From positions 26,383 to 90,382 of IMG/VR virus record IMGVR_UViG_3300009370_000009: a DNA stretch of 64,000 bases; one strand, 5' to 3'. The notes below the pieces were generated by a model. The model made no database searches and was not told the origin of the DNA. It saw nothing but the letters and a program-made list of their open reading frames with translations. This document shows positions 12,285 to 64,000 of the stretch, piece after piece (the first letter of the stretch is position 1; every line of letters begins with the position of its first letter). Origin of the DNA: a virus. Both the position numbers and the translations under genes were made by a program.

Positions 12285-12479
12285 ATGGAAAAGGCTAGTA
12301 TTTTTTGCAAAAAGTGCAATGGCAGGGTACTTGCTAGTGAGGTACCTGGGTATCCGTACATTGATCTAACTTGTTTAGGTTGTGGATGGTCAAGAGACGT
12401 TCCTAAAGATGTATGGGCTAATGCAACTAAGGCTAGCCTAAGACAAATAGTAGATAAGGCTGACAAACTTGAATTTTAA
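12285..12479 (+). CDS. Small zinc-ribbon protein
   Basis: CKKC...CLGCGW. Confidence 0.6.
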   Translation: MEKASIFCKKCNGRVLASEVPGYPYIDLTCLGCGWSRDVPKDVWANATKASLRQIVDKADKLEF

Positions 12480-12921
12480 AGTTTCGCCAAATAAGGTATA
12501 TTCTTATGGGCCTGATTTGGTGAAAGTTTTGTCTATTCATAAAAAATTTAATAAAGTTAAAATAAAACAACTGGCTTCGGGAGATATCCTCGAGATACCA
12601 TTAGATAATGCGTATCTATTCTTGAAGCGAGTTTATACGATAGGGGAAGTGGCCAAGATTGTTCAGAGGAAACCTGATACAATCAGGAGGTATGAGCGTC
12701 TTGGCCACTTATCCCCACCAGAGCGGGTTGGTGGGGGTTCCGGTTTAAAGAATTGGCGAGTGTATACGCAAGATGACGTTGCGGATGTGCTATCATTCTT
12801 TTCGGAGCGGAAGCCTCCGGGGCGCCCGCCTAAGAAAAATATAACCAGTAGAGAACTCAGGTCCAGAATAAGAGACTTGAGTGCAAAGAGCAAAAGAGCA
12901 TTGGAGAATTTCAATGAGTGA
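12469..12921 (+). CDS. MerR-like helix-turn-helix DNA-binding protein
   Basis: YTIGEVAKIVQRKPDTIRRYERLG...WRVYTQDDV. Confidence 0.8.
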   Translation: MNFKVSPNKVYSYGPDLVKVLSIHKKFNKVKIKQLASGDILEIPLDNAYLFLKRVYTIGEVAKIVQRKPDTIRRYERLGHLSPPERVGGGSGLKNWRVYTQDDVADVLSFFSERKPPGRPPKKNITSRELRSRIRDLSAKSKRALENFNE

Positions 12922-13114: not shown

Positions 13115-13116
13115 GC

Positions 13117-13404
13117 ATGCCGAATTTGGACGGGGCTTTATGTAGAGGAAATGCCCGTGAAAATTATTGGCTGAGTTACGTTGAGGCAGAGGTCGAGTGT
13201 GCCAAAAGCATTTGTATGGAATGCCCAGTTATATCGGAATGTGCTTTACTGATGATGATGCAGTATGCCGAAGGTGACATACCGGTAGGTGTTTTTGCCG
13301 GAACCAGTGAATTTGATAGGCTTGAATCCTTGTGGAAGGAGGTTGGAGATGGCAAAGAAAGTAACTGGTCAGGATTTGATAGCCTTATTCCAGAAGGAAT
13401 GTGA
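13117..13404 (+). CDS. whiB: WhiB-like transcription factor
   Basis: C...AKSICMECPVISEC...GVFAGTSEFDR. Confidence 0.75.
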   Translation: MPNLDGALCRGNARENYWLSYVEAEVECAKSICMECPVISECALLMMMQYAEGDIPVGVFAGTSEFDRLESLWKEVGDGKESNWSGFDSLIPEGM

Positions 13405-33932: not shown

Positions 33933-33991
33933 ATGATTCCTCGAAAAATATATACTCAATTTCACTGAAACATTCAGTCAAATCCCGAGGG

Positions 33992-34007
33992 TTTGTAACA
34001 TTACAAA
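33992..34007. promoter_or_regulatory. Lone TGTAA-NN-TTACA palindrome outside the cassette array
   Basis: tttgtaacattacaaa. Confidence 0.65.
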
Positions 34008-40368: not shown

Positions 40369-40562
40369 GAGATTGGTATAGATGATGCCGGCCAGAAAAA
40401 TATATACTCAACTTGACGCAAGAAATAAGATAAAAGTGCTGGGCGCACTTAATGAAACACTCAATCATTCACTCAATCACTAGAGCAGACATTTCTGCCG
40501 CCTATTGCCGGCGATTGTCTGCACCTTTGATTGCCCCATTCCCAGGCGTTTATTGCCATGAA

Positions 40563-41430: not shown

Positions 41431-41512
41431 GCTCCAGTGGTGGAATTGGCATACACAACAGACTTAAAATCTGTCGCTGAAAAGCATAAGGGTTCGAGTC
41501 CCTTCTGGAGCA
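41431..41512 (+). tRNA. tRNA-Leu(TAA)
   Basis: GCTCCAG/CTGGAGC acceptor, acaga-cTTAAaa-tctgt, variable arm, GTTCGAGTCC. Confidence 0.92.
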
Positions 41513-41549
41513 CGCTTAAGTTAGTTTAATCTATTAGATTGGAGAGGTA

Positions 41550-45539: not shown

Positions 45540-45612
45540 GGGGGTGTAACTCAATTGGTAGAGTAGCGGACTTTTAATCCGAAAGTTGTGGGTTCGATTC
45601 CCACCACCCCCA
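45540..45612 (+). tRNA. tRNA-Lys(TTT)
   Basis: GGGGGTG/CACCCCC acceptor, cgga-ctTTTaa-tccg, GTTCGATTCC. Confidence 0.92.
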
Positions 45613-45713
45613 CGATAAGAATATGTATTCAAGTTATCCATCCGGTAAGATAAAAAATGCCGGGTGCAGTTATTAGTTTAGCCAATAATGCTTGAGAGGA
45701 TCAGGTAATACAA

Positions 45714-48124: not shown

Positions 48125-48198
48125 GCCCTATTAGCTCAATTGGATAGAGCAACAGATTTCTACTCTGTAGGTTGAGGGTTCGATTCCTTCATAGGGCG
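48125..48198 (+). tRNA. tRNA-Arg(TCT)
   Basis: GCCCTAT/ATAGGGC acceptor, acaga-ttTCTac-tctgt, GTTCGATTCC. Confidence 0.92.
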
Positions 48199-48312
48199 CT
48201 AAAAATTCATTCAAGTTGGCTAAGGGAAAGGCAAGAAAACGCCGGGAGGAAAAAGGTAAAAGTTGAGAAAAGTGGTCAAAATGTACAAAAAGTATTACAA
48301 TTGGAGGCAATT

Positions 48313-49038: not shown

Positions 49039-49112
49039 GGGGCAGTAGCATAAAAGGTAAATGCACAGTTCTTATAAAGCTGAGAGAGTGGGTTCAATTC
49101 CCACCTGCCCTA
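49039..49112 (+). tRNA. tRNA-Ile(TAT)
   Basis: GGGGCAG/CTGCCCT acceptor, cagtt-ctTATaa-agctg, GTTCAATTCC. Confidence 0.88.
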
Positions 49113-49163
49113 CGTGAATTTATTTGTATTGCCAATAATATATGGAGAGTAAGGAATTAGATA

Positions 49164-50935: not shown

Positions 50936-51263
50936 TTATAGTTGGGAAGACGACGCTGCGTGCAGAAACCTTTCTGAAGAAAAGAAGTCAGATTTCTTTC
51001 CTAGCAGGGAAGAAGGTTTGGCTAAATTGATGAAGAAGCAGGTCAGAAATGCTAGGAGTGTGTGTTTAGAATGTCCAGTTATATACGATTGTCTTCATGC
51101 TGCTTTGGTCACTAATGAGAAGCATGGTATTTGGGCTTTGTCTACTCCTAAGCAAAGAATAGTGTTGCGCAGGAGCAAGGATAAGGATGGGAATCCTATG
51201 TATATGGATATTGAGAATATACCGATTCTATTTGAACAGATGATTGGCGATATGACTATTTAG
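50913..51263 (+). CDS. whiB: WhiB-like transcription factor (start uncertain, 50862 or 50913)
   Basis: WEDDAACR...FFP...ARSVCLECPVIYDCL..AL...GIWA...QR. Confidence 0.85.
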   Translation: MEQKSGINYSWEDDAACRNLSEEKKSDFFPSREEGLAKLMKKQVRNARSVCLECPVIYDCLHAALVTNEKHGIWALSTPKQRIVLRRSKDKDGNPMYMDIENIPILFEQMIGDMTI

Positions 51264-51270
51264 TTGGGAG

Positions 51271-54354: not shown

Positions 54355-54880
54355 GAAGCATATAATCATGTATAAGAAGAGGACACAAGGCCAGCAGAAG
54401 TTGAGTCCTCTCAAAACATAAAATAACCCTGGTGTTATTCAATATTTGCTCCAATAATTGAAATAATGGCCTGGGTTTACGTAAAAGGTTTATTTTTTTT
54501 TAAATATTGATCTAAATCGGGTCTTTTTTTAGAAATAAATGTTATGGGTTGTCGGCTGGGTAGGGTAGTGTATATAGGGGGGGTATAGTTACCTTATCCA
54601 GCCGGCATTTGGCATTAGCCACGTACATATTTAGGTGAGGCCAATAATGTGGTTTGCGTTAAGTGATTGAATGAGTGATTCAATACCGATTCAATAATCG
54701 TGATTATTGAGTAGTGATTTCTCGAGTCTTTGAGTCAAAGAATTAATTTTGATAAATGCTGTAAATGACCTGGACAATGGTTGAGAATGACACGTATGTA
54801 AGTTGTAAGAGAAATAATGGTAGTTGATTGAGTTTATGATTACCTCAATCAATTACAAAAAAATTTTGTCTTGTCCGTTT

Positions 54881-55049
54881 TGTAACCTTACAAAACCTGC
54901 GTTCTGTAACATTACAAAATCCACGGGCGCTCCATTTCGTAAAATTACAAAGGCCATATTGCGGGGTTGTAACCTTACAAAATTGTTCAATTTGGCACTT
55001 TGTAACATTACAAAATCTCGGGCGCCGGCGACAGCTTTGTAACGTTACA
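54881..55049. repeat. Cluster of six TGTAA-NN-TTACA palindromes
   Basis: 54881, 54905, 54938 (CGTAA variant), 54968, 55001, 55038. Confidence 0.9.
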
Positions 55050-55065
55050 AAGTGAAATTACAATG

Positions 55066-55127
55066 AAAGAGGCCCGCAACCTCCGGGAGCCTTAGGGCTG
55101 CCGTTATGTAAGGTTGCGGGCCTCTTT
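55066..55127 (-). terminator. Long stem-loop downstream of the 55152 gene
   Basis: AAAGAGGCCCGCAACCT...AGGTTGCGGGCCTCTTT, 17-bp stem. Confidence 0.75.
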
Positions 55128-55151
55128 ATTTGTAACGTTCCGACGTGACCC

Positions 55152-55430
55152 CTAGGCGACCCGCGTCACGAGTGGAAGATTACTATCCGTCCACTGGACG
55201 GACGCCTTCTCCCACCCCGCGACGCGTGCCCCGGTCGTGATCGCGGAACGAATCCGGCCACGATCCTTGGAGGTGTCTGCCTTGAATTTGGAACCTTCCA
55301 AAGCAGCCGCCTTCCCAATGGGGCATCCGTCCAGCAGTTTGGAAACTTCCAAAGCCAGAGCGGAGGGCTTCCGGCCCTTGCCGGGCACGCGCCCGGCAAA
55401 GTCCGAAGGGTCAATGAATTTGGGCGCCAT
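55152..55430 (-). CDS. Small basic putative DNA-binding protein (cassette gene A1)
   Basis: 92 aa; PGKGRKPSALA...CPIGK...RGRIRSAITTGA...SV.WTD...RVA; GAAAGG RBS. Confidence 0.8.
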   Translation of the reverse strand: MAPKFIDPSDFAGRVPGKGRKPSALALEVSKLLDGCPIGKAAALEGSKFKADTSKDRGRIRSAITTGARVAGWEKASVQWTDSNLPLVTRVA

Positions 55431-55546
55431 TTCTGGAACCTTTCATTGAATGTCGGCGTTATGTAATTCTGAATCATTCAGTAAATGAATGACTCAAACA
55501 TTACAGAACGGAGCCGGGGAACCTGCTCCCCCGAACCACAAATACT

Positions 55547-55607
55547 AATTTAGCACACCACTATTCTCTCGCGTAAACCTTGCGTTTCACTCAACAAATT
55601 ACTTTCT
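55547..55607 (-). promoter_or_regulatory. Cassette promoter: AGAAAGTAATTT...ACGCAA-N27-TAAATT
   Basis: Fixed spacing shared with four other cassettes. Confidence 0.6.
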
Positions 55608-55750
55608 CCCAACCATTTCCATTCCGCCATTTGGAAACATTACAACTTAATAATAATCTAAATAATACAGAAATCTGTTTACTGAATTGAAACTTAATAA
55701 TATTACAAAATAATAAGTAAATAAATTACAAATTCATTCAATCTCGAGTT

Positions 55751-55829
55751 TGTAAAATTACAAAATTCCACGGGAGCGCGTTGTTGCTGGAATTTGAGCG
55801 CTCCCGTAGGGGGCTTTTGTAATTTTACA
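55751..55829. repeat. Box-hairpin-box element 1
   Basis: TGTAAAATTACA...ACGGGAGCGC-18nt-GCGCTCCCGT...TGTAATTTTACA. Confidence 0.9.
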
Positions 55830-55908
55830 GAGTGGGGTTGCCGGCGATTTGTAAGGTTACAGGCTGGCTCCTGGTTTGTAACCTTACATAGTGAAATTAC
55901 CAAATGAA

Positions 55909-55962
55909 AAGGCCCCGGTAGCAACTCCCGTAGGGTGGAGTTTGTAATGCTACCGGGGCCTT
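55909..55962 (-). terminator. Stem-loop downstream of the 55997 gene
   Basis: AAGGCCCCGGTAGCA...TGCTACCGGGGCCTT. Confidence 0.75.
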
Positions 55963-55996
55963 CTGTTCTTTGTAATGATACGGTCCGCCTAGCGGG

Positions 55997-56308
55997 CTAG
56001 GCGACGCGAACGACCAGCGGGTGGTTGTCGTCGGTCCATGACACGGAGACCTTCGACCAGCCCGCCATCTTCGCGCCGGTGGTGATGCCGGATCGGATGC
56101 GACCACGTTCAGCCTTGTCGTCAGGCTTGACCGTAATCTTACCCATCAGGAATCCCTTACCGACGGGGCAACCCTTCGCATCCGCGGCGACCTGTGTCGC
56201 CAACGCGGAAGGCTTGCGCCCGCGGCCCGGAACCTTACCGGCCATGCTGGCCGGGTCGATGAAGTTCGGAATGGTAATCTTTCCCCTTTCTGGTTTGTAA
56301 TCTGCCAA
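55997..56308 (-). CDS. Small basic putative DNA-binding protein (A2, paralogue of A1)
   Basis: FIDP...AGKVPGRGRKPSALA...CPVGK...RGRIRSGITTGA...WTD...RVA. Confidence 0.8.
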   Translation of the reverse strand: MADYKPERGKITIPNFIDPASMAGKVPGRGRKPSALATQVAADAKGCPVGKGFLMGKITVKPDDKAERGRIRSGITTGAKMAGWSKVSVSWTDDNHPLVVRVA

Positions 56309-56552
56309 CCATCCGGTACCAATCAGATGGTCTGCGTTCTGGTTTGTAACCTTTCGGCAGAGGCTCTAGCGTGTGTGTGCGGCAACCGGGCGAGGGTGCT
56401 AGCAACCCTCGCCCGGTCTGTAAGGTATTGACCGTTGGTCCGTAGTTCAGACGGCACCATCCCGACGGGGGCTTTGTAATGAGACGAATCTTCGTCGTCG
56501 CTACCCCCGTGACTAGTGTGATGGTCGGTACCTACGCCTTGCCACGAACAAC

Positions 56553-56635
56553 AAGGTATGCGATAGCCCACCCTTTCAGCGAATGTTGCGTGACACCCTG
56601 GAAATTACTTTCTGGCTTGTTAGGTGCCCCTAACA
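56553..56635 (-). promoter_or_regulatory. Cassette promoter with DtxR/IdeR-like palindrome
   Basis: TGTTAGGTGCCCCTAACA 56618-35; AAATTACTTTCT; ACGCAA-N27-TACCTT. Confidence 0.6.
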
Positions 56636-56744
56636 GGTCGGGAATAATGTAGCCTGGAAGGTTACAAAGTGTCAGCCTGGAAGATTACATAATCCCTAAG
56701 CGCCGGCGCCGGCTAAGTAAGATTACAAAATTCATTCCACATTG

Positions 56745-56825
56745 TGTAAAATTACAAAGCTTTCCTAGGGGAGCGCACAGAAGCGAAAACGAACGTGCGC
56801 TCCCCCAGAATTTTGTAATCTTACA
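56745..56825. repeat. Box-hairpin-box element 2
   Basis: TGTAAAATTACA...GGGGAGCGCAC-16nt-GTGCGCTCCCC...TGTAATCTTACA. Confidence 0.9.
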
Positions 56826-56839
56826 CAGTGTTTTGTAAC

Positions 56840-56868
56840 AAAAAAAAGCCCGCCCCGTAGGGCGGGCC
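56840..56868 (-). terminator. Intrinsic terminator
   Basis: aaaaaaaa-gcccgccc-cgta-gggcgggc (U tract on the - strand). Confidence 0.85.
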
Positions 56869-56880
56869 TCTTTTGTAATA

Positions 56881-56973
56881 CTACTTCTTGGGGGGCGTGT
56901 ACCGCCCGTTGGCCTTGGGCCGCCGATTCGTAATGGTACGAATCTTAGGCTTGGACCGCTTGCCGATCGGCAT
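56881..56973 (-). CDS. 30-aa highly basic micropeptide (not in the ORF track)
   Basis: MPIGKRSKPKIRTITNRRPKANGRYTPPKK; GAAAGGTTACA RBS; followed by a terminator. Confidence 0.65.
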   Translation of the reverse strand: MPIGKRSKPKIRTITNRRPKANGRYTPPKK

Positions 56974-56990
56974 GGTCTGTAACCTTTCTG

Positions 56991-57173
56991 CTATACGTCG
57001 ATGGGACGCTTGTGGATGGGGATGTTTTTGTAACATTTGTTACAGATGTCGTCGTCGTTGTATTTCGACAGGATGGTGGAGCAGTTGCGAGTCTTACAAA
57101 CTCGCTGGGGCGCTCCGGGCGCCATCCTCGCCTTCTGGCGTTCCCGCTTGCTGGGCTTTCGTGGTTTGGCCAC
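56991..57173 (-). CDS. Basic zinc-finger protein
   Basis: GTG 57173 after GAAAGGTTACA; CKTRNCSTILSKYNDDDICNKC. Confidence 0.75.
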   Translation of the reverse strand: MAKPRKPSKRERQKARMAPGAPQRVCKTRNCSTILSKYNDDDICNKCYKNIPIHKRPIDV

Positions 57174-57234
57174 TATGTAACCTTTCTGTTGTGGTGGTGG
57201 GGAGGGTGTGACCCCTCCCCACCGGACGACTATG

Positions 57235-57450
57235 TTAGCCGTGGACCTTGATGGTCTTTGTAAGGTTCGAGTAGCGAACCCACACTTCGGCATCTCCCGC
57301 GTGACGCTGGGCGTCGCGGTTGTTGATGTAGCGACCAGAGTCAGGATGTAATCCTACAATCTGGAAGTCCATCCCCTCCTGCCACGCCAGTAACACGGCG
57401 GGGCCAGAGGTGTAGTCCCGCCCATAGGCGGGAACCACGGTGATGTTCAT
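57235..57450 (-). CDS. Conserved small phage protein
   Basis: ATG 57450 after GAAAGG; PAYGRDY....V...W..G.DF. Confidence 0.75.
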   Translation of the reverse strand: MNITVVPAYGRDYTSGPAVLLAWQEGMDFQIVGLHPDSGRYINNRDAQRHAGDAEVWVRYSNLTKTIKVHG

Positions 57451-57529
57451 AACGTAACCTTTCGGTAGTAGGTAAGGCGTGGGAGGGACTAGGGCTACTG
57501 GCGGAACCCCGGTCCCTCCCACAACCAAT

Positions 57530-57613
57530 ACGGTAGGTCATTCCCCAACCTATTGACGAACGTTGCGTTACACCTAGAAAATTACTTTCTCGCATTGTTA
57601 GGTGTACCTAACA
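57530..57613 (-). promoter_or_regulatory. Cassette promoter with DtxR/IdeR-like palindrome
   Basis: TGTTAGGTGTACCTAACA 57596-613; AAATTACTTTCT; ACGCAA-N27-TACCGT. Confidence 0.6.
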
Positions 57614-57695
57614 GTAAACAAATAATCAGATTGGAATATTACAAACCAATCTAATAATCTTCATGTAAAATTACAAATCCACTAAAGCCACGTTC

Positions 57696-57771
57696 TGTAA
57701 AATTACAAAAATCTACGGGAGCGCATTTTTACTGCAATTTGAGCGCTCCCGTCGCGTTTTGTAATTTTACA
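57696..57771. repeat. Box-hairpin-box element 3
   Basis: TGTAAAATTACA...ACGGGAGCGC-18nt-GCGCTCCCGT...TGTAATTTTACA; extra box at 57664. Confidence 0.9.
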
Positions 57772-57790
57772 GGATGGGTTTTGTAATTAT

Positions 57791-57831
57791 GAAAGGGCCA
57801 GGGTAGTTTGTAATTCTACCCTGACCCTTTC
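57791..57831 (-). terminator. Stem-loop downstream of the 57851 gene
   Basis: GAAAGGGCCAGGGTAG...CTACCCTGACCCTTTC. Confidence 0.7.
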
Positions 57832-57850
57832 GTTTTGTAACCTTCCGGGC

Positions 57851-58549
57851 TTAGCCGTGGCGCTCCACCGCCTCGTCCCAGTTGGCCTGCGATTCGTAGG
57901 CTTCCAGAACGCCGCCTTCGATGGAGAGCCGGGATGCCCGCATCTCCAGCGAGTTTGTAAGGTCGGCCATCATCTCGTCCCACTGGAGATCTGTAACGTG
58001 ACGCTTTACGGTCCATGCCTTGCGCCCCTTTGTAGGAATACGCAACGCCTGCGGGGCCTTCCGGTTCCATTCCTTGACGAGATTACGAAACTCGCCCACC
58101 TTACTAACCCACACGATGCCACCCTGGACGATGCCACCGGACACGGGCGGGAGGTCCATCGTGATGGTTCGGCATGGCTCCAGCATGGGGCAAGTGTTAC
58201 AAATCTCCAGAGCAGCGTGAACCCTGGAAATTACATTCTTCTCAGAGGGAACGGGGAAGAATGGATTCTTACTAACTCGCCGTGGGGTGCCGACGCCAGA
58301 CTTGCGGTTCGCCCGGATGGTCGGAAGCAGAACCGGGGTCGCCTCCCAGTCACGCTTACAAGCAGCCCTGGAAGTTACAAACCGGTACCGGTCGGTCACC
58401 CGCGACTTGCGGATGTAGTGGCCGGTAGTGGGCCGGTCTGTAATTCGGCAGGTCAGCCACTTGGCAACCTTACGGAATCCGACCGGGCGGGGTGGGCCGA
58501 TCAGGGCGTCCAGCATCCGGTCTAGGACCATGGTCAGGTGGTGGGTCAT
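57851..58549 (-). CDS. Extended WhiB-like protein (B1)
   Basis: AAC...NPFFP...ALEICNTCPMLEPC...GIVQGG; GAAAGG RBS. Confidence 0.75.
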   Translation of the reverse strand: MTHHLTMVLDRMLDALIGPPRPVGFRKVAKWLTCRITDRPTTGHYIRKSRVTDRYRFVTSRAACKRDWEATPVLLPTIRANRKSGVGTPRRVSKNPFFPVPSEKNVISRVHAALEICNTCPMLEPCRTITMDLPPVSGGIVQGGIVWVSKVGEFRNLVKEWNRKAPQALRIPTKGRKAWTVKRHVTDLQWDEMMADLTNSLEMRASRLSIEGGVLEAYESQANWDEAVERHG

Positions 58550-58800
58550 TATGTAGCCTTTCGGGGCTGCGGTCCCGGTCGATTTGACCGGGCTGATGGG
58601 TCAAATCGTATCGTCTATCATTCTGTAATTAGGCGCTTCTGGCCCAATTCTCTACATCGTCACACAATCGTAACAGTCACGATAACAGTCATTATCTTAC
58701 AGAATGGCCTGGGTCCCTGGAAATTACAAATAATAATAGGTATCCAAATTACAAAGTCAATAATACCCCCCTAAATTACAAAACCACTCAACTCCCACTT

Positions 58801-58877
58801 TGTAAAATTACAAAAAACTACGGGTGGACGCTTTGTACTGAATTCATGTCCACCCGTCAAATTTTTGTAATTTTACA
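58801..58877. repeat. Box-hairpin-box element 4
   Basis: TGTAAAATTACA...ACGGGTGGAC-18nt-GTCCACCCGT...TGTAATTTTACA. Confidence 0.9.
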
Positions 58878-58895
58878 TTGTGGGGTAAATTACAG

Positions 58896-58921
58896 AACCC
58901 CCCGGCTTGTGCCGGGGGGTT
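58896..58921 (-). terminator. Stem-loop downstream of the 58941 gene
   Basis: AACCCCCCGGC-ttgt-GCCGGGGGGTT. Confidence 0.75.
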
Positions 58922-58940
58922 TGTAAGGTTTCAGGTTGGG

Positions 58941-59687
58941 TTATGTATGCTTACGGACTGCCTTGGCCCATGCTTCGGCCATTGCGGTTTCGTAAGTTTC
59001 GTCGGCCCAATCGTAGGGGTCGAATCCGGCTACCTCGCGGGCGGTGTCTTTGTAATCATTCATAACGATTTCCAGAAGGGCACCGCGGAAGTCGTTGGCC
59101 CGGGTCAGGTTTGTAAGGTATTCCTCTAGTTGCGTGACGGTGGGGGTCCGTCGTAGGTCCCATGCGTTCCGGCCTTTTGTAGGAATACGAAGTGACCGCG
59201 GGGCCTTCTGGTTCCACGCCTTGATGAGTGCCCGGAATTCTGTAATCTTATCAACAAAGACCATCCCGCCTTGAACGATCCCGGTAGCGACCGGGGGAGT
59301 TTGTAGGGTTACGTCCCGGCACTCAGCCCGCACCGGGCAAACCTTACAAATCTCCAGCGCGGCGTGGACCCTAGCGACCTTGTTCTTCTCAGAATCGACC
59401 GGGAAGAATGGATTCTTACAAAGTGCCCGGGGGGTGCCCAATCCCGACTTCCTATTGTTACGAATCACCGGCAACATTACAGGGTCGGCTTCCCAATCGC
59501 GACCGTGGCAGGCCGCCTGAGAAGTTACAAAGTTGTGCCGGTCGGTAATCCGCGACTTGCGGATCGTCCAGAAATTACGAACCAGCGGACGGTCGCTGAT
59601 CCGGCAGGTCAGCCATTCCGTAGCTTTACGAATTGGCAGAATCTCGCCGGGCTTGGCGAGTCGGACTTTCGGGAACCAGTTCATCAT
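58941..59687 (-). CDS. Extended WhiB-like protein (B2, paralogue of B1)
   Basis: AAC...NPFFP...ALEICKVCPVRAEC...GIVQGG; ATG 59687 or 59684 after GAAAG. Confidence 0.75.
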   Translation of the reverse strand: MMNWFPKVRLAKPGEILPIRKATEWLTCRISDRPLVRNFWTIRKSRITDRHNFVTSQAACHGRDWEADPVMLPVIRNNRKSGLGTPRALCKNPFFPVDSEKNKVARVHAALEICKVCPVRAECRDVTLQTPPVATGIVQGGMVFVDKITEFRALIKAWNQKAPRSLRIPTKGRNAWDLRRTPTVTQLEEYLTNLTRANDFRGALLEIVMNDYKDTAREVAGFDPYDWADETYETAMAEAWAKAVRKHT

Positions 59688-59747
59688 GTAATCTTTCGAT
59701 TTGGGTGATCCGACTATGTAGGTCGGCTGACCCGGAGGGTCACCCAA

Positions 59748-59820
59748 ATTCTACAGCACGGCACTTTGTAATGAGAACCTTTGCTTTTAATTACAAATCT
59801 ATTGTTAGCTGGGCCTAACA
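59748..59820 (-). promoter_or_regulatory. Cassette promoter with imperfect DtxR/IdeR-like palindrome
   Basis: TGTTAGCTGGGCCTAACA 59803-20; AAGCAA-N27-TAGAAT. Confidence 0.55.
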
Positions 59821-59898
59821 CGCCGGCAACCGATTCGTCCGTAACATTACAAACCAATAATCTCTATGTAAAATTACAAATCCACTAAATCCTGGGTT

Positions 59899-59968
59899 TG
59901 TAAAATTACAAAAAACTACGGGAGGGCAACTTATTCCTGGTTTCCGCCCTCCCGCTCGTGAAATTACA
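59899..59968. repeat. Box-hairpin element 5 (right box degenerate)
   Basis: TGTAAAATTACA...CGGGAGGGC-18nt-GCCCTCCCG; extra box at 59867. Confidence 0.85.
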
Positions 59969-60242
59969 AATGTGTCAATAATTTTTGCGTGAAATTACAA
60001 ATCTACTCAATAATCTAGTTTCAAACATTACAAAACGCTGGGGGTCGCCGGCTTTGTAATTTTACGGGGGAGGTGGTGGGTTTGTAATTTGTGGGGAAAT
60101 TCGTAATTGTTACAGTTATGTGACGATGTGGGAAATTGGGCGGAATTGGGCCAAATTACAAATCGGGGGACGATAGCGTGGGGGCGTTCCGCCGAACGGC
60201 GGGACCGGCCCCACATAGGCCGTTGACCCCGAAGGGGATGAC

Positions 60243-60722
60243 ATGCTGTACCTGTCCACCGCAATGATCCGGGCCGCGATCCTCGCGGCCCTGCCGCGAC
60301 TCCGCGGCGACACCGCGAAGCGTGACCGCTGGGCCGCGCTGTTCGCGGGTTGGTTGGCCCCGTCCACCGGGACCGCCACGACCATCACGGCCCCGACCAC
60401 CGGGACCGCTTCCAACGTGGCCCGCCGCGCATGGAAGCACGGCGACCCCTTGAAGGGCACCGTCCCGGTGTCCCTGTCCCGCTGGACCTTCGACGACCTG
60501 ATGGTGAAGGTGTCCACCGCGACCCCCACCGTCGCATCCCAGCGGATCGCGATCACTCAGGCCGTGGACAAGGTTCAGGCCGCGGTCGAGGCGATCCTCG
60601 CGGACAAGGGCGCGACGCTGGACGCGATCCCGGAGGTCGCGGTGTCCGTCGATCCGACCGGCGAGGGCGTCATCGTGACGGCCTACTACCACGACCACGG
60701 CGAGGTCCGCCCCGGCGGCTGA
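60243..60722 (+). CDS. GC-rich hypothetical protein (C1)
   Basis: YLS...ALPRLRGD.AKRDRWAALFAGWLAP...; GAAGGGG RBS; paralogue of 62311-62751. Confidence 0.8.
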   Translation: MLYLSTAMIRAAILAALPRLRGDTAKRDRWAALFAGWLAPSTGTATTITAPTTGTASNVARRAWKHGDPLKGTVPVSLSRWTFDDLMVKVSTATPTVASQRIAITQAVDKVQAAVEAILADKGATLDAIPEVAVSVDPTGEGVIVTAYYHDHGEVRPGG

Positions 60723-60734
60723 CCCCGGTAGGCG

Positions 60735-60767
60735 CGAGGCCCCCGGTCCGTTGGGCCGGGGGCCTCG
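60735..60767 (+). terminator. Stem-loop after C1
   Basis: CGAGGCCCCCGG...CCGGGGGCCTCG. Confidence 0.7.
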
Positions 60768-60897
60768 TCGCGTCCGGCCTGGGGGCGTCCAACTCGAGGT
60801 GCCCCAATAATCGAATTGGAAAATTACAAACTCGCCTAGCACATGGCGGGGGAAATTACAAATCCACTTTAGTTAGAGAAGCTAACTACTTGCTATC

Positions 60898-60973
60898 CGA
60901 GGGGCGCTCGTAGCGGAAGCGATATGCCACGAGCGCCCCTCGAATTTTTGTAATTTTCCTTTGTAATTTTACA
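60898..60973. repeat. Hairpin-box element 6
   Basis: CGAGGGGCGCTCGT-17nt-ACGAGCGCCCCTCG...TGTAATTTT..TGTAATTTTACA. Confidence 0.8.
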
Positions 60974-60997
60974 TAGTGGGTGTTGGTAATTTACAGA

Positions 60998-61023
60998 ACC
61001 CCCCGGCTGGTTCGCCGGGGGGT
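60998..61023 (-). terminator. Stem-loop downstream of the 61055 gene
   Basis: ACCCCCCGGC-tggttc-GCCGGGGGGT, nearly identical to 58896. Confidence 0.75.
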
Positions 61024-61054
61024 CTGTAGGGTTACGGACTGGGCTTCTGTAAGG

Positions 61055-61390
61055 TTACGTGTGCCAGATCCAGAGTTCGCCGTCCACGATCTCGCAGGTC
61101 ATCTTGTAATTTGCCGGAATGTAATTCTGCTTACAGCCTGAGAGGTGACGGAAGTAGTCTGCCATCATGCGGGCACAGGCCATGCGTGGCGAGTAGTGCT
61201 TTGTAACCTTAGTCAGTGCGTTGTCGAGGGGCGGCCCGGTCAGGATCAGAACCATGTCGGGATCGTTGGCCCAGTTTGTAATTGCTTCCAGCCATTCATC
61301 GTTCAGGCCGGATGCGCCGGGGTTCGCACATTCTGTAATCTCATGTAGGGACATGGAACGGGCGCTAGGGTTGATGATGCTTTCGGACAT
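61055..61390 (-). CDS. Hypothetical protein
   Basis: GAAAGGTTACACAATG start context. Confidence 0.7.
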   Translation of the reverse strand: MSESIINPSARSMSLHEITECANPGASGLNDEWLEAITNWANDPDMVLILTGPPLDNALTKVTKHYSPRMACARMMADYFRHLSGCKQNYIPANYKMTCEIVDGELWIWHT

Positions 61391-61401
61391 TGTGTAACCT
61401 T

Positions 61402-61587
61402 TCAGTTAGTCGGGACTTTGGTGCCGTGGATGATCCCGCAGGATGCGATCCCACATTCTGTAATCTTGTCATTCTGGAAGATTCCTTCCAGCGCCGTGTC
61501 GGCGGCGGTAGTGGTGGCATAGGTGCCAACCTTGACGGTGCGGCCGGTGTCGCTAGCCACGTACCAGACGGTCCATTGCTCTCTCAT
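61402..61587 (-). CDS. Hypothetical protein
   Basis: ATG 61587 after an identical GAAAGGTTACACAATG. Confidence 0.7.
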   Translation of the reverse strand: MREQWTVWYVASDTGRTVKVGTYATTTAADTALEGIFQNDKITECGIASCGIIHGTKVPTN

Positions 61588-61598
61588 TGTGTAACCTT

Positions 61599-61823
61599 TC
61601 AGCCGCAGTAGTCTGCGGGGTTGGGGCGGGTATCGCCGGTGTAGTATTCCCAGACGTAGTGCCAGTGGCATGAGTCTGTAATTATTGCTTCTAGGGCAAG
61701 GCAGGCTCCCCCGAAAGCAGCGACGCCGAAAATTACAAACAGGCATCGGATCAGGGTATCCCGCGTGGTGATCAGCGGGGTACCGGGGTGAATGTGGCGG
61801 GTGATGTCTAGGTGGTTCCTCAT
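61599..61823 (-). CDS. Small membrane protein, possibly leaderless
   Basis: TM-like CLFVIFGVAAFGGACLALEAII; TAGAGT -10 seven nt upstream of the ATG. Confidence 0.55.
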   Translation of the reverse strand: MRNHLDITRHIHPGTPLITTRDTLIRCLFVIFGVAAFGGACLALEAIITDSCHWHYVWEYYTGDTRPNPADYCG

Positions 61824-61989
61824 GGGAACCACTCTACACCAGCCTGGTTTGTAATTTGCTATTCATTTCTTATCCATTACATTCATGTTACAAATTACAA
61901 ACAATGTAAATGTCAAATTACTGTTACCCTTTTAGTAAAGTTCCAATAATGCGCTATGAAAGATTACAAACTCGTTCAATAATGTGAAT

Positions 61990-62067
61990 TGTAAAATTAC
62001 AAAGTTGCCGGGTGTTCATGGCACGCACTTCCGCCAGGAACACCCGCCGGCGATTTTATAATTTAAT
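61990..62067. repeat. Box-hairpin element 7 (right box degenerate)
   Basis: TGTAAAATTACA...CGGGTGTTC-20nt-GAACACCCG...TATAATTTAATA. Confidence 0.8.
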
Positions 62068-62310
62068 AGGCGATTTTCTCGGCAAATTCTATTTCCTAAA
62101 ACTCAGTTTCTCCTGAATTTTTATTCTCTAAATGGGCAGTTTCTCGGCGGATTTATTGCGTGGTTTGTCAATTGAATTGGCGGAGAAAATTACGTAATGG
62201 GAATAGAATTTCTGATCGCGTTCGGCCTGGTGATGCTCGATGTCCGACCCGTGGCCGAACGCGGAAAGGCGCCCGACCCCTTTCGGGACCGGGCGCCTGC
62301 CGCGCTGGGA

Positions 62311-62751
62311 TTAGCGGTCCAGCATGTAGGCGGTGACGGTCACGCCTTCAGCGTGCGGGTCCACGGACACGGCAGCCTGCGGGTCGCAGTCCAGCCCGTC
62401 CGCGAGATCCGCGATCGCGGACTGGATCTTGTCCACGGCTTGCGTGATCGCGATTCGCTGGGAATCCACGCTGGGGGTGGCGCTGGACGCCTTGACCATT
62501 AGGTCATCGAACGTCCAGCGGGCGATGCTGACCGGGCGGGTTCCGCGCAGCGGGTCGCCCGCCTTCCATGCGCGGCGGGCGACATTCGATGCCAGCCGCG
62601 TCGTGCCAGCGGTGATGGTGGTGCCACCATGGTTGGGGGCCAACCAGCCCGCGAACAACGCGGCCCAGCGATCGCGCTTCGCAGCGTCGCCGCGCAAGCG
62701 TGGAAGCGCGAGGATGATCGCCTTCCGGATGAGTGGGAGGGATAGGTACAT
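62311..62751 (-). CDS. GC-rich hypothetical protein (C2, inverted paralogue of C1)
   Basis: MYLS...ALPRLRGDAAKRDRWAALFAGWLAP...; GAAAGG RBS; stem-loop at 62268-62297. Confidence 0.8.
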   Translation of the reverse strand: MYLSLPLIRKAIILALPRLRGDAAKRDRWAALFAGWLAPNHGGTTITAGTTRLASNVARRAWKAGDPLRGTRPVSIARWTFDDLMVKASSATPSVDSQRIAITQAVDKIQSAIADLADGLDCDPQAAVSVDPHAEGVTVTAYMLDR

Positions 62752-62855
62752 GATGATCCTTTCGGGATCGGCGCCCGGTCGTTCCGGGTTCCCCGTCAGC
62801 GTAGCAGCATTCCGTAGCCTTTCCGCGCATCGGGCGGGCAATTCGTAGGGGCAAT

Positions 62856-62896
62856 TTCTATTCCTAATAAGTCCAGAATTCTATTCCTAATAAGTC
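62856..62896. repeat. 18-bp direct repeat TTCTATTCCTAATAAGTC x2
   Basis: 62856-73 and 62879-96. Confidence 0.85.
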
Positions 62897-62952
62897 ATTA
62901 ATTCTATTATGTAATAACTCAATTTCTAGACGAATTTAATTCGCTAAATAGC

Positions 62953-63028
62953 AAAATTACAAAAAAAAGGGAGCGCAAGCTCGCAAGCGCCTCGGTTGCG
63001 CTCCCTTCAAATTTTTTGTAATTTTACA
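62953..63028. repeat. Box-hairpin-box element 8
   Basis: AAAATTACA...AAGGGAGCGCAA-17nt-TTGCGCTCCCTT...TGTAATTTTACA. Confidence 0.88.
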
Positions 63029-63063
63029 GGCTGGGTTTGTAATTTTCCATAGAATAGACGCGG

Positions 63064-63105
63064 GAGAGTCCCCACCTTGTCCGACTTTGTAAGGTGGGGA
63101 CTCTC
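63064..63105 (-). terminator. Stem-loop downstream of the 63141 gene
   Basis: GAGAGTCCCCACCTT...AAGGTGGGGACTCTC. Confidence 0.75.
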
Positions 63106-63140
63106 AACCGCCCCGGAACCCATCCCGGGAGTTTGTAAGG

Positions 63141-63452
63141 TTACGCCATCGGGATCAGGTGGTCGTTCTCCCGGTGGGCGGGGACGGAGGCGTCGTGTGC
63201 GCCCAGTCCCCACGCCTTCTGCCAGAGGTCGGCCACGAATTCGGCCTGCTCCAGAGTGCGGCAGGGGAGGTGGAAGATTACAGAGTCGGACTGGTCGCCG
63301 GTCGGGGACTGGCACCAGATCTCCACTTTGTAATCTGCCCGGTCGTTGGCGACCACGAAGGCGGCTTCGACCTTGCCCGCCGGGGTGCGCATGGGGATGA
63401 TGGGACGGACTGCCATTCCGTCGCATCCGGTGGTTTCGGGTGATTCGTTCAT
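63141..63452 (-). CDS. Hypothetical protein
   Basis: ATG 63452 after AAGGAG-acattacaga. Confidence 0.7.
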   Translation of the reverse strand: MNESPETTGCDGMAVRPIIPMRTPAGKVEAAFVVANDRADYKVEIWCQSPTGDQSDSVIFHLPCRTLEQAEFVADLWQKAWGLGAHDASVPAHRENDHLIPMA

Positions 63453-63498
63453 TCTGTAATGTCTCCTTGTCGGGTACTTGGCTTCCCCAACAAGTACC

Positions 63499-63581
63499 AA
63501 GGTACATGATGCCGTTATGTAATGTCGTGCTTTGCGTGTGTCGTAGCTGAATCGTAACAATCGTGTTAGGTGTGCCTAACA
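63499..63581 (-). promoter_or_regulatory. Cassette promoter with DtxR/IdeR-like palindrome
   Basis: TGTTAGGTGTGCCTAACA 63564-81; ACGCAA-N27-TACCTT. Confidence 0.6.
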
Positions 63582-63781
63582 GGGTGGGAATAATGGAATT
63601 CAATAAATTACAGAATGGCGGCCTCTCTGTGTGTGTTCAATAATCCATCCTGTAAAATTACAAAGTCGTGGGTGGCGAAAATTACAGAGTAGCTGCGTGT
63701 GTGGCCGGCGTTCGGAATAATCGTTTTCGTAAAATTACAAAGTGGGTGCCGGCGAGGTAGTTAGGGAAGCTAACTACCAGG

Positions 63782-63813
63782 CCGAACACGTGTTCGGGGG
63801 AACGTATGTTCGA
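63782..63813. promoter_or_regulatory. Two tandem Gram-positive-type LexA (SOS) boxes
   Basis: CCGAAC-ACGT-GTTCGG and GAAC-GTAT-GTTCGA. Confidence 0.65.
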
Positions 63814-64000
63814 TGGATAGTTATTCAATTTTGTGAATAGTGCCGTGTGCGCGCCGTTGGAGAATGAGCGGAGCTCAATTCTGGCGCTCGTTTACGAGCG
63901 CCCAAAATTTTGGCCACTCTCCGTAGTCATGGGCTGGTCACTCTCCGTGGCTCGATGCCGGACCGGCCCCGGACGCGGACCGGCCCCGGCCCGTGATGGG

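Follow-up and report, generated by a model that had tools for sequence, protein, structure and literature searches.

We analysed a stretch of 64,000 nucleotides (nt), hereafter the window, from the viral record IMGVR_UViG_3300009370_000009 of IMG/VR (positions 26,383 to 90,382 of that record), focusing on a block close to its right end that is saturated with a short inverted repeat, TGTAA-NN-TTACA, which we call the box. The 90,382-base pair (bp) contig belongs to a tailed phage. It codes for tail and fibre proteins, a terminase, an exonuclease, a DnaE-type polymerase and a primase/helicase, together with RecA-like and RuvC-like proteins, several DNA methyltransferases and enzymes of nucleotide metabolism. 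The block is the sole leftward-transcribed module of the contig. Its G+C content is ~52–57%, compared with ~40–45% elsewhere on the contig, and its edges were set by comparison with a related metagenomic locus, L006. It harbours the following genes, some of them with box half-sites inside their coding sequences (CDSs).

54881 to 63900, minus strand: the motif-saturated block
55152 to 55430, minus strand: A1, 92 amino acids (aa), a paralogue of A2, motif-free inside
55997 to 56308, minus strand: A2, 103 aa, motif-free inside, with an invariant PGRGRKPS stretch
56881 to 57450, minus strand: operon s71 (57235–57450), s60 (56991–57173), s30 (56881–56973)
57851 to 58549, minus strand: B1, 232 aa, with a WhiB-like four-Cys core and seven in-CDS sites
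58941 to 59687, minus strand: B2, 248 aa, a WhiB-like paralogue of B1 with eight in-CDS sites
60243 to 60722, plus strand: C1, an inserted, motif-free gene with a G+C content at third codon positions (GC3) of 0.89
62311 to 62751, minus strand: C2, a paralogue of C1, also inserted and motif-free, with the same GC3
61055 to 61823, minus strand: D operon, D77 (61599–61823), D61 (61402–61587), D111 (61055–61390)
63141 to 63452, minus strand: E103, 103 aa, with two in-CDS sites and its stop codon in a box that matches at 11 of 12 positions

The 12-mer TGTAANNTTACA is present as 23 perfect copies in the window, for an expectation of 0.02, and none of 100 shuffles reached that number. Twenty-two of these copies lie in 54881–63662 and one at 33994. 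A preliminary description of this DNA had listed the 22 boxes, from 54881 to 63651, and a single earlier copy; on recount of the window all the coordinates proved exact, and 33994 is the sole perfect box outside the block. With at most one mismatch, 40 boxes are found in the block and two outside, against 2.5 expected. The many half-sites mentioned in the same description are just as real, with 70 TTACA and 74 TGTAA pentamers in 54801–64000, against ~7 each expected from base composition. The full unit is longer than the 12-mer first noticed, namely TTTGTAA-NN-TTACAAA, the duplex form of this palindrome being TTTGTAAaaTTACAAA. Its heptamer halves TTACAAA and TTTGTAA are found 44 and 42 times (86 in total) in the last 9.2 kilobases (kb), versus 0.3–0.4 each expected from composition, and only six heptamer half-sites are scattered over the other 81 kb of the contig. 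Two sets of boxes mark the downstream end of the block and the exception outside it.

54881 to 55049: cluster of five perfect boxes (54881, 54905, 54968, 55001, 55038) and one 11/12 box (54938), at the downstream end of the block, where it converges with plus-strand genes
33994 to 34005: sole out-of-block perfect box, with the full 16-bp consensus TTTGTAAcaTTACAAA, directly after the terminase gene

Next to these sites, we observed that AAAATATATACTCAA has two exact plus-strand intergenic copies, at 33945–33959 and 40397–40411, the first of which lies 35 nt upstream of the box at 33994–34005; it may represent a late-promoter word. The AT-rich junction between the plus-strand genes and the block (54400–54880), with long T-runs, small repeats (GATTCAATA, GTGATT, AATAAT) and few boxes, is probably a zone of convergent terminators.

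Homology searches with B2 yielded ~18 homologues at ~50% identity in metagenomes, and an alignment of the B family then retrieved 22 loci, all from marine metagenomes. TTACAAA and TTTGTAA are the top 7-mers in every one of them, at the same density as in the window, and the hexamer ATTATT is on the same strand as the B gene. The gene order is kept across the 22 loci, with E, the D genes, C on either strand, B, s71-s60-s30, A2 and A1, D111 and E103 being found in some loci only. The B proteins are 43–62% identical across loci. In A homologues at 45–50% identity, the word is still visible in the over-called N-termini, where LCNL, VDYK and TKGYIV correspond to TTTGTAAT, ATTACAAA and AAAGGTTACATAGTG. 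In L006, the block forms an internal island of ~10 kb with 48–56% G+C, bordered on both sides by motif-free flanks of ~40% G+C with genes running in the opposite direction. Its upstream edge matches the window at ~63.76–63.9 kb. As the 5.5 kb that follow in L006 have no counterpart here, the present contig is incomplete at that side, and given the internal position in L006 the block need not be a genome end, although the contig stops at its right edge. The upstream junction of L006 codes for a glycosyltransferase, an SNase-type nuclease and unknown proteins, with no recognisable regulator.

The nearest named relatives of the phage are the Streptomyces cluster BE phages (39% identity in DnaE), whose terminal region is different and contains no analogous block, and no DNA match to the block or homologue of B was detected in named phages. 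Similarly, searches of IMG/VR viral contigs with B2, C2 or the alignments A3, A4 and A5 revealed no relatives, and the double-box pattern gave two unrelated chance matches there. Our literature search found no paper describing this system. The WhiB-like four-Cys core of B1 and B2, additional WhiB-type open reading frames (ORFs) and the fit of codons and transfer RNAs (tRNAs) to a GC-rich host, all features predicted from sequence, point to an actinobacterial host, the phage belonging to an uncultured marine lineage of probable actinophages.

The geometry of the site is strict. In 81 kb from 12 non-redundant loci, TGTAA and TTACA are separated by two nucleotides in 124 cases, versus two, zero and one cases for spacings of one, three and four nucleotides, respectively, which argues for a two-fold symmetric site recognized by a dimer on duplex DNA. 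Approximately half of all heptamers fall within such N2 palindromes. The site comes in two grades, perfect palindromes on the one hand and a perfect half associated with a degenerate half on the other. Of the earlier proposal that a dimeric protein coats the region, the dimer-type target is supported and the coating is not: the most conserved genes (A1, A2) and the C genes have no sites.

Many boxes come in pairs around predicted terminators. Among 41 unique box pairs spaced by 35–75 nt, 28 enclose a strong GC-rich hairpin (folding free energy ≤ −12 kcal/mol). The stems vary between copies and the flanks are constant, ...TTACAAAA on one side and ATTTTTGTAA... on the other, so that box, linker and stem together make up 30-nt inverted arms. 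These structures are predicted bidirectional intrinsic terminators, with a GC-rich stem-loop, a 5' A-tract and a 3' T-tract, both tracts being supplied by the word. Copies of the word are also present in terminator loops. The box and hairpin sets of the block are as follows.

55751 to 55888: four perfect boxes (55751, 55818, 55850, 55877) flanking the hairpin 55770–55807
56745 to 56825: two perfect boxes (56745, 56814) flanking the hairpin 56768–56805
57664 to 57771: three perfect boxes (57664, 57696, 57760), with inverted arms 57695–57724 and 57743–57772 around the hairpin 57715–57752
58801 to 58877: two perfect boxes (58801, 58866) flanking the hairpin 58820–58857
59867 to 59955: two perfect boxes (59867, 59899) and the hairpin 59918–59955, with degenerate boxes beyond
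60898 to 60973: hairpin 60898–60942 and perfect box 60962
62969 to 63028: hairpin 62969–63005 and perfect box 63017, with an 11/12 box at 63038

The lone half-sites are polar with respect to these hairpins. Up to 150 nt upstream of the box-hairpin-box centre, they read TTACA in 58 cases and TGTAA in four on the sense strand, and downstream of it TGTAA in 71 cases and TTACA in seven. The perfect halves thus face the terminator from both sides, and half-site orientation flips within each transcription unit. The same trend is present within the B genes, and long inverted repeats do not account for it. The word is placed non-randomly, in the A- and T-tracts of terminators, as polar half-sites around them and, as described below, in promoter-like units.

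Half-sites that converge on hairpins, like polar sequences on a target, might also serve a structural or recombinational purpose, i.e. mark cassette boundaries, a packaging or injection signal or an origin, or steer a DNA translocase. The modular, ~1 kb repeats of the block go along with this idea, as do the duplication of B in the window only, the presence of C on either strand and that of D111 and E103 in some loci only. We nevertheless consider it very improbable. The gene order conserved across 22 loci is not that of a shuffled array, the block is internal rather than terminal in L006, and no recombinase or transposase is encoded in or beside it. Furthermore, sites in codons and in the spacers of ribosome-binding sites are not boundaries, and the word is missing from the C genes, the very ones that do move.

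A second word, ATTATT, occurs 25 times on the transcribed strand of the block and twice on the other strand. TGTAA begins 16–19 nt upstream of it in 16 of these 25 copies. In the pooled loci the distance is 16, 17 or 18 nt in 25, 54 and 51 cases, respectively (130 of 222 unique contexts), which gives the consensus TTTGTAAT-N7-9-(g/c)ATTATT. One to three of these promoter-like units, ~32 bp apart, precede every transcription unit save the C genes.

63589 to 63741, minus strand: three tandem promoter-like units upstream of E103 (ATTATT starting at 63721, 63644 and 63594)
63651 to 63739: perfect box 63651 and 11/12 box 63728, each serving as upstream element in one of the promoter-like units ahead of E103
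61945 to 62003, minus strand: two promoter-like units upstream of the D operon (ATTATT at 61983 and 61950)
61990 to 62001: perfect box that doubles as the upstream element of a promoter-like unit before D77-D61-D111
59856 to 60034, minus strand: three promoter-like units upstream of B2 (ATTATT at 60014, 59982 and 59861)
58729 to 58784, minus strand: promoter-like units upstream of B1 (ATTATT at 58764 and 58737)
57621 to 57678, minus strand: two promoter-like units upstream of s71-s60-s30 (ATTATT at 57658 and 57626)
56643 to 56668, minus strand: promoter-like unit upstream of A2 (ATTATT at 56648)
55649 to 55734, minus strand: promoter-like unit upstream of A1 (ATTATT at 55714), with extra ATTATT copies

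A further unit on the B2 side, with ATTATT at 60811, is set apart by the inserted C1 gene. Most units carry one strong half-site. The gap between the box and the −10-like element nATTAT is 9–11 bp, so the box is too close to be a −35 element, and the units contain no conserved −35 element. The −10-like element (g/c)ATTATT matches TATAAT at four of six positions and is devoid of the T at −12. If ATTATT is read as A(−11)TTAT(−7), the dyad centre lies ~21–23 bp upstream of the start point. By analogy, the box would then occupy the position of an operator overlapping the promoter core, or else that of a −30 box comparable to the one bound by MotA in phage T4.

Other promoter grammars were tried and discarded. 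A scan for canonical sigma-70 promoters gave weak matches only, and the gap from box to ATTATT is too short. For a MerR-type promoter with a 19–20-bp spacer, −35-like TTGAGT or TTAGTG sequences at N20 were limited to a few paralogous units. The Bacteroidota grammar (TTTG...TAnnTTTG) did not match, and the WhiB genes and codon data indicate Actinomycetota.

These units raise the question of whether the word is primarily a promoter element. WhiB proteins bind region 4 of sigma-A, and the B proteins belong to the WhiB family. In such a scheme, as at T4 middle promoters, TTTGTAAT would be a '−30 box' used together with nATTAT, its reader being either a monomeric activator or a sigma factor, remodelled or alternative. 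The WhiB-like B proteins would be candidates for docking on sigma-A region 4, and the many additional copies would keep the factor or RNA polymerase concentrated on the module. The oriented, bipartite unit with its ±1 spacing, the 25:2 strand bias of ATTATT, the occurrence of one to three units with no conserved −35 before the transcription units other than C, the single strong half-site of most units and a gap too short for a −35/−10 pair and close to the 12 ± 1 bp of MotA promoters (PMC2988021) are all consistent with it. Strict N2 palindromes, which include half of the heptamers, are nevertheless not needed by a monomer or a sigma factor, and the sites in codons, in Shine–Dalgarno (SD) spacers and in antisense orientation upstream of terminators are left unexplained. 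If the block is early, moreover, the activator must be a host protein or be carried by the virion, and the Pfam matches listed include no sigma factor, no RNA polymerase and nothing similar to MotA or AsiA. Finally, the −10-like element has only its four matches out of six to TATAAT, whereas T4 middle promoters need an excellent −10. We consider this explanation, the main alternative, unlikely on balance. A dual role of the word as operator and promoter element is possible.

A second palindrome follows several of the promoter-like units.

56619 to 56634, 57597 to 57612 and 63565 to 63580: TGTTAGG-N4-CCTAACA (core GTTAGG-N4-CCTAAC)
59804 to 59819: an imperfect copy of the same palindrome

It starts exactly 8 nt after the ATTATT of the last unit in 15 of 28 unique contexts, and its arms show no variation between loci. 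It is followed by a conserved leader, GAAAGTAATTT-N7-8-GTAACGCAA. In view of its invariant arms, this palindrome is probably a second protein site, an operator near position +1, with a possible role as a 5' hairpin in addition or instead. We also considered an integron attC-like reading of GTTAGG...CCTAAC and rejected it, the order and distance of the halves being wrong and no integrase being present among the Pfam matches listed.

The word is not restricted to spacers. On the minus strand, GAAAGGTTACA occurs exactly at 56978, 57176, 61393, 61590 and 56345, and with one mismatch before the starts of s71, B1, B2 and A1. The half-sites that had been reported as fused to SD sequences before the starts at 56973, 57173, 61390 and 61587 are thus found as GAAAGGTTACA at each of the four. 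At 61393 and 61590 the SD reads TGAAAGGTTACA, a full box with one mismatch, and all SD-proximal copies share one sense orientation (GAAAGGUUACA). The stop codons at 61055 and 63141 likewise lie in near-perfect boxes, as had been noted, with TGTAAGGTTACG (11/12 match) at 61048–61059 and 63134–63145.

Within genes, enrichment was assessed by shuffling synonymous codons, the check that the preliminary description had called for. The 13 CDSs of the window contain 31 pentamers. Over 2000 shuffles the mean was 9.9 and no shuffle exceeded 17, so that the outcome of the check is positive. The enriched genes are B1, B2, D111 (61055), D61, D77 and E103 (63141), and A1, A2, C1, C2 and s30 are pentamer-free; by in-CDS count, this agrees with the initial impression that the word recurs in B1, B2, D111 and E103 and is absent from A1, C1 and C2. 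Shuffles per family over non-redundant loci gave the following pentamer counts.

B: 112 observed, mean 29.2, maximum 43
D77: 25 observed, mean 6.1, maximum 12
D111: 22 observed, mean 7.0, maximum 14
E103: 13 observed, mean 2.4, maximum 6
s71: 27 observed, mean 8.8, maximum 17
s60: 31 observed, mean 14.8, maximum 21
C: 3 observed, mean 2.0, maximum 6

The 19 distinct genes of the B family harbour 7–12 sites each, at alignment positions that are kept despite changes of the protein. One TGTAA is present in 19 of 19 genes through FVT/SVI/NVI residue changes and one TTACA in 17 of 19 through ILTE/IITE/NLTK changes, and four more positions are kept in 14–19 of the 19. Of the 15 rare ACA codons of the block, 11 are within TTACA. 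The in-CDS sites retain the extended consensus AAnnTTACA(A/G)A and thus resemble a perfect half associated with a weak half. Taken together, these data support the view that the DNA word is under selection within genes too.

On the sense strand of CDSs, there are 173 TTACA and 88 TGTAA. One frame is closed to TGTAA, since an in-frame TAA would result there, and the two orientations are similarly frequent when counted per allowed frame. The presence of both orientations inside CDSs points to a DNA-level rather than an RNA-level signal. An action of UUACA/UGUAA in RNA, as the target of a translational repressor, as an RNase site or through pairing of a transcript 3' end with the next leader, could account for the shared orientation of the SD-proximal copies, for the copies in terminator loops and for the complementarity of upstream UUACAAA and downstream UUUGUAA around each hairpin. 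In addition to the use of both orientations in CDSs, the strict 12-bp palindromes speak against it, as their 2-nt centre precludes hairpin folding and sites of this form are usually recognized as duplexes; so do the sites located upstream of the presumed transcription starts. A search of Rfam gave two sub-threshold matches only. Of the explanations considered, we hold this one to be the least probable.

Codon usage sets the block apart from the rest of the genome. The phage has four tRNAs, Leu(UAA), Lys(UUU), Arg(UCU) and Ile(UAU), located in the window at 41431–41513, 45540–45613, 48125–48199 and 49039–49113. GC3 is 0.72 in the block (0.89 for the C genes) versus 0.41 in ten of the largest genes outside it. 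The codons TTA, AGA and ATA are found two, one and one times in the block, against 62, 69 and 108 times in these ten genes. The use of host-like codons and the avoidance of those read by the phage tRNAs suggest that the block is probably an early, host-takeover module, whose translation, in the simplest reading, would draw on the tRNAs of a GC-rich host at a time when those of the phage are not yet available. As the compositional contrast persists in relatives at 50% protein identity, it is maintained and is not the trace of a recent transfer. The phage would thus display a temporal codon partition, with a host-codon early module and tRNA-dependent late genes.

If the module is early, its genes would be read by the host machinery before any phage protein is made, which brings up the possibility that the sites belong to a host transcription factor or nucleoid-associated protein that the phage recruits, senses or titrates. 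The word has remained identical while the phage proteins have diverged to 45–60% identity, and the 16-bp palindrome is used in cellular genomes, though in Bacteroidota tandem arrays only. We scanned 185,579 species genomes for double boxes, and no actinobacterial or marine host genome was retrieved; all matches are these Bacteroidota arrays, whose flanks are unrelated. The block also encodes very conserved, small basic proteins (A2, s30) that could carry the frozen specificity. To our knowledge, the word matches no actinobacterial regulator motif, the spacings of CRP/GlxR, Rex, LexA, IdeR and LacI-type sites being different, and we know of no LacI/CcpA cre-type, CRP/FNR/NtcA-type or parS site with an N2 spacing. 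A host protein is in our view improbable as the binder. Titration of a host regulator had been among the functions first proposed, and we found nothing that favours it, the bacterial scan having given the unrelated arrays only.

The Bacteroidota arrays (Tannerellaceae, Proteiniphilum, Parabacteroides, Arcicella, Chitinophaga) are composed of ~41-bp tandem units with TTTGTAA-NN-TTACAAAA. They include L083 (1–560), L032 (420–490) and ~70 other loci (L026–L100), some of which are box pairs in divergent intergenic DNA. They have unrelated flanks and no phage genes nearby, and we regard them as unrelated to the phage block.

Several phage proteins are candidates for binding the word, as judged from their predicted features. 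A2 is the most conserved protein of the block (82–93% identity across loci). It has a sub-threshold match to Histone_HNS in Pfam (E 0.14, 12.4 bits for a cutoff of 25.6) that falls exactly on the PGRGRKPS stretch, and its predicted structure is a small alpha/beta fold (predicted local distance difference test, pLDDT, of 81.5). In the second operon, s60 has a basic tail and a zinc-ribbon-like motif (CX4C...CX2C), and s30 is a very basic 30-aa peptide with 90–97% identity across loci. In the B proteins, the cysteines C60, C114, C117 and C123 are invariant (20 sequences), with the pattern C-Xn-C-X2-C-X5-C. B2 matches PF02467 with 28.2 bits (cutoff 23.6) and B1 with 21.2 bits, the top match of B by sequence in the PDB is WhiB1 (E 0.08), and the 30 nearest atlas clusters of B are all WhiB sets. 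The B proteins are three times as long as classical WhiB proteins, with extra N- and C-terminal regions. The candidates, all unproven, are A2/A1, s60, the long WhiB-like B proteins and a MerR-type protein encoded at 12469–12921. Among the Pfam matches listed for 71 ORFs of the window and the block proteins, there is no integrase and no homologue of the L5-type repressor.

Two further observations concern the WhiB-type genes. Small, uncalled plus-strand ORFs with classical WhiB motifs (FFP...CLECPVIYDC) are found at ~13115–13288 and ~50936–51270, so with the long B1 and B2 the phage carries several genes of this type. B is duplicated here and single in the related loci, the duplicated modules spanning ~1.1 kb including box-hairpin-box (repeat spacings of 1105 and 1098).

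The C genes are outside the motif system. Their flanks (61990–62310 and 62752–62960; 4480–5182 in L006) have their own repeats, GAATAGAAT and CCGAGAAA, and sigma-70-like TTGCCG-N18/19-TATAAA sequences. They are found on either strand, differing between loci, and look like a separately regulated or mobile insert in the block.

We tentatively favour the view that TTTGTAA-NN-TTACAAA represents the operator sites of one symmetric, dimeric regulator, which would nucleate at the perfect palindromes and switch the whole module. The perfect palindromes beside the terminators would be the high-affinity nucleation points. The weaker sites located downstream of the hairpins overlap the core of each promoter-like unit; those located upstream are in the 3' halves of genes, in stop codons and in terminator loops, and others are in the spacers between SD and start codon and in codons. 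With rising levels of the protein, the palindromes would be occupied first, and occupancy would then spread outward over the weaker sites. The filled network would occlude the promoters and place roadblocks inside the transcription units, so that the module is switched as a unit. The most likely outcome would be its shut-off after the early phase, the many strong sites delaying repression until enough protein has accumulated. Of the functions proposed in the preliminary description, silencing or switching fits this scheme best, and an injection stop or end protection is without support, the block being internal in L006.

A number of observations weigh against this view. In the promoter-like units, the strong half-site has a fixed orientation and a ±1 spacing to ATTATT, as would sooner be expected of a promoter element or of the site of an activator than of an operator for a symmetric repressor. 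That the word is invariant among diverged phages might just as well be due to the conservation of a host factor. The symmetry of A- and T-tracts in bidirectional terminators could supply part of the palindrome signal, though it would not account for the exact TGTAA...TTACA letters or for the strict N2 spacing. Avoidance of the word outside the block is weak, with six occurrences for 11–15 expected, i.e. about two standard deviations. Extra synonymous conservation at the motif codons of the B alignment is not significant (0.87 versus 0.83, p = 0.2), which we attribute to the low power of an alignment with too many close relatives. With regard to the binder, the only recognisable helix-turn-helix protein among the Pfam matches listed is the 150-aa MerR-type protein at 12469–12921, 40 kb away. 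The fold matches of A2 (SpoVS/Alba-like, C-terminal domains of RepE/Pi) are at noise level (Z 4–5.8), and the structure model of B (pLDDT 41) offers no usable fold. Lastly, none of the sequencing runs listed for the phage is an RNA run.

A more elaborate scheme can be proposed, which we find doubtful as a whole. The early module would be a separately coded domain with a three-word grammar (the box, ATTATT and TGTTAGG-N4-CCTAACA), written in host-like codons that require none of the phage tRNAs. A single symmetric protein would grow from the palindromes in both directions and combine the roles of promoter element, terminator enhancer and roadblock, with the number of high-affinity sites serving as a titration timer for early shut-off. 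The binder would be either a new small fold (A2/A1) or a WhiB-like B protein acting via sigma-A.

If the operator reading is correct, the block would be the densest phage operator network known to us, its sites following one another at about one per 100 bp for 10 kb. Clear cases of a regulatory word kept inside coding sequences at ~50% protein identity are rare, and this would be one of them, maintained at the cost of rare codons and even of amino-acid choices. Early-gene timing in phages of uncultured marine Actinomycetota would become accessible to tests, with a probe of 16 bp, a few candidate binders and the promoter-like unit defined here. The strict grammar could serve as a compact, insulated design for expression cassettes in high-GC hosts, and the combination of a host-codon early module with tRNA-dependent late genes would illustrate temporal codon partitioning.

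Among known systems, the stoperators of cluster A mycobacteriophages come to mind first. These are asymmetric 13-mers bound by a monomeric, two-domain repressor, with just over 20 sites that are spread over the whole temperate genome, outside codons, in promoters and in very short gaps beside start and stop codons within transcription units (PMC9283540). As in those actinophages, one short word is used many times, in promoters and beside start and stop codons, and the ideas that initiation and elongation are both blocked and that site orientation matters (PMC9283540) would apply here, the lone half-sites being polar. Unlike stoperators, the word described here is a strict palindrome, implying a dimer, and its ~40 full and ~90 half-sites are confined to 10 kb, many of them inside codons. 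Stoperator orientation correlates with the direction of transcription; the full sites here are symmetric and the lone half-sites polar to hairpins. Neither an L5-type repressor nor an integrase is present among the Pfam matches listed.

The conserved inverted repeats (CIRs) of phiC31 are 17-bp inverted repeats present in ~18 copies in the intergenic parts of the early region of this temperate phage, where they are bound by the c repressor. The block shares with them an inverted repeat conserved in many copies, intergenic and next to the promoters and terminators of a presumed early region. It differs in being several-fold denser, with sites in SDs, stop codons and codons, in its polar half-sites and in its lack of a recognisable repressor gene.

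In T4 middle promoters, the MotA box is centred at −30, at 12 ± 1 bp from the −10 (PMC2988021); it is asymmetric, bound by a monomer and requires an excellent −10. The geometry is similar without being identical, with a word that would take the place of the −35, closer to the −10 and with a tolerance of ±1, the distance here being 9–11 bp from nATTAT. However, palindromes make up half of the sites here, and the −10-like element is weak. The module also looks early, which T4 middle genes are not, and relatives of MotA or AsiA are absent from the Pfam matches listed.

More partial likenesses concern individual elements of the block. As in bidirectional intrinsic terminators, GC-rich stems that vary between copies are preceded by an A-tract and followed by a T-tract, with conserved flanks. 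Unlike in generic terminators of this kind, the tracts are TTACAAAA and TTTTGTAA, parts of complete 12–16-bp palindromes, and the loops are unusually large (11–20 nt). The invariant PGRGRKPS of A1/A2 recalls the Q/RGR loop motif of H-NS/Lsr2-type binders, with the Pfam match to Histone_HNS remaining sub-threshold. In oriC, DnaA boxes form opposed arrays, and the mirror layout of asymmetric sites around a strong centre in the block is reminiscent of them.

The block lacks defining features of each of the stoperator, phiC31 CIR and T4 middle-promoter systems. By analogy, it would work like a multi-site operator network, one that is distinguished by the symmetry of its sites, their density, their confinement to a single compositional island, their placement in SDs and codons and the polarity of their half-sites.

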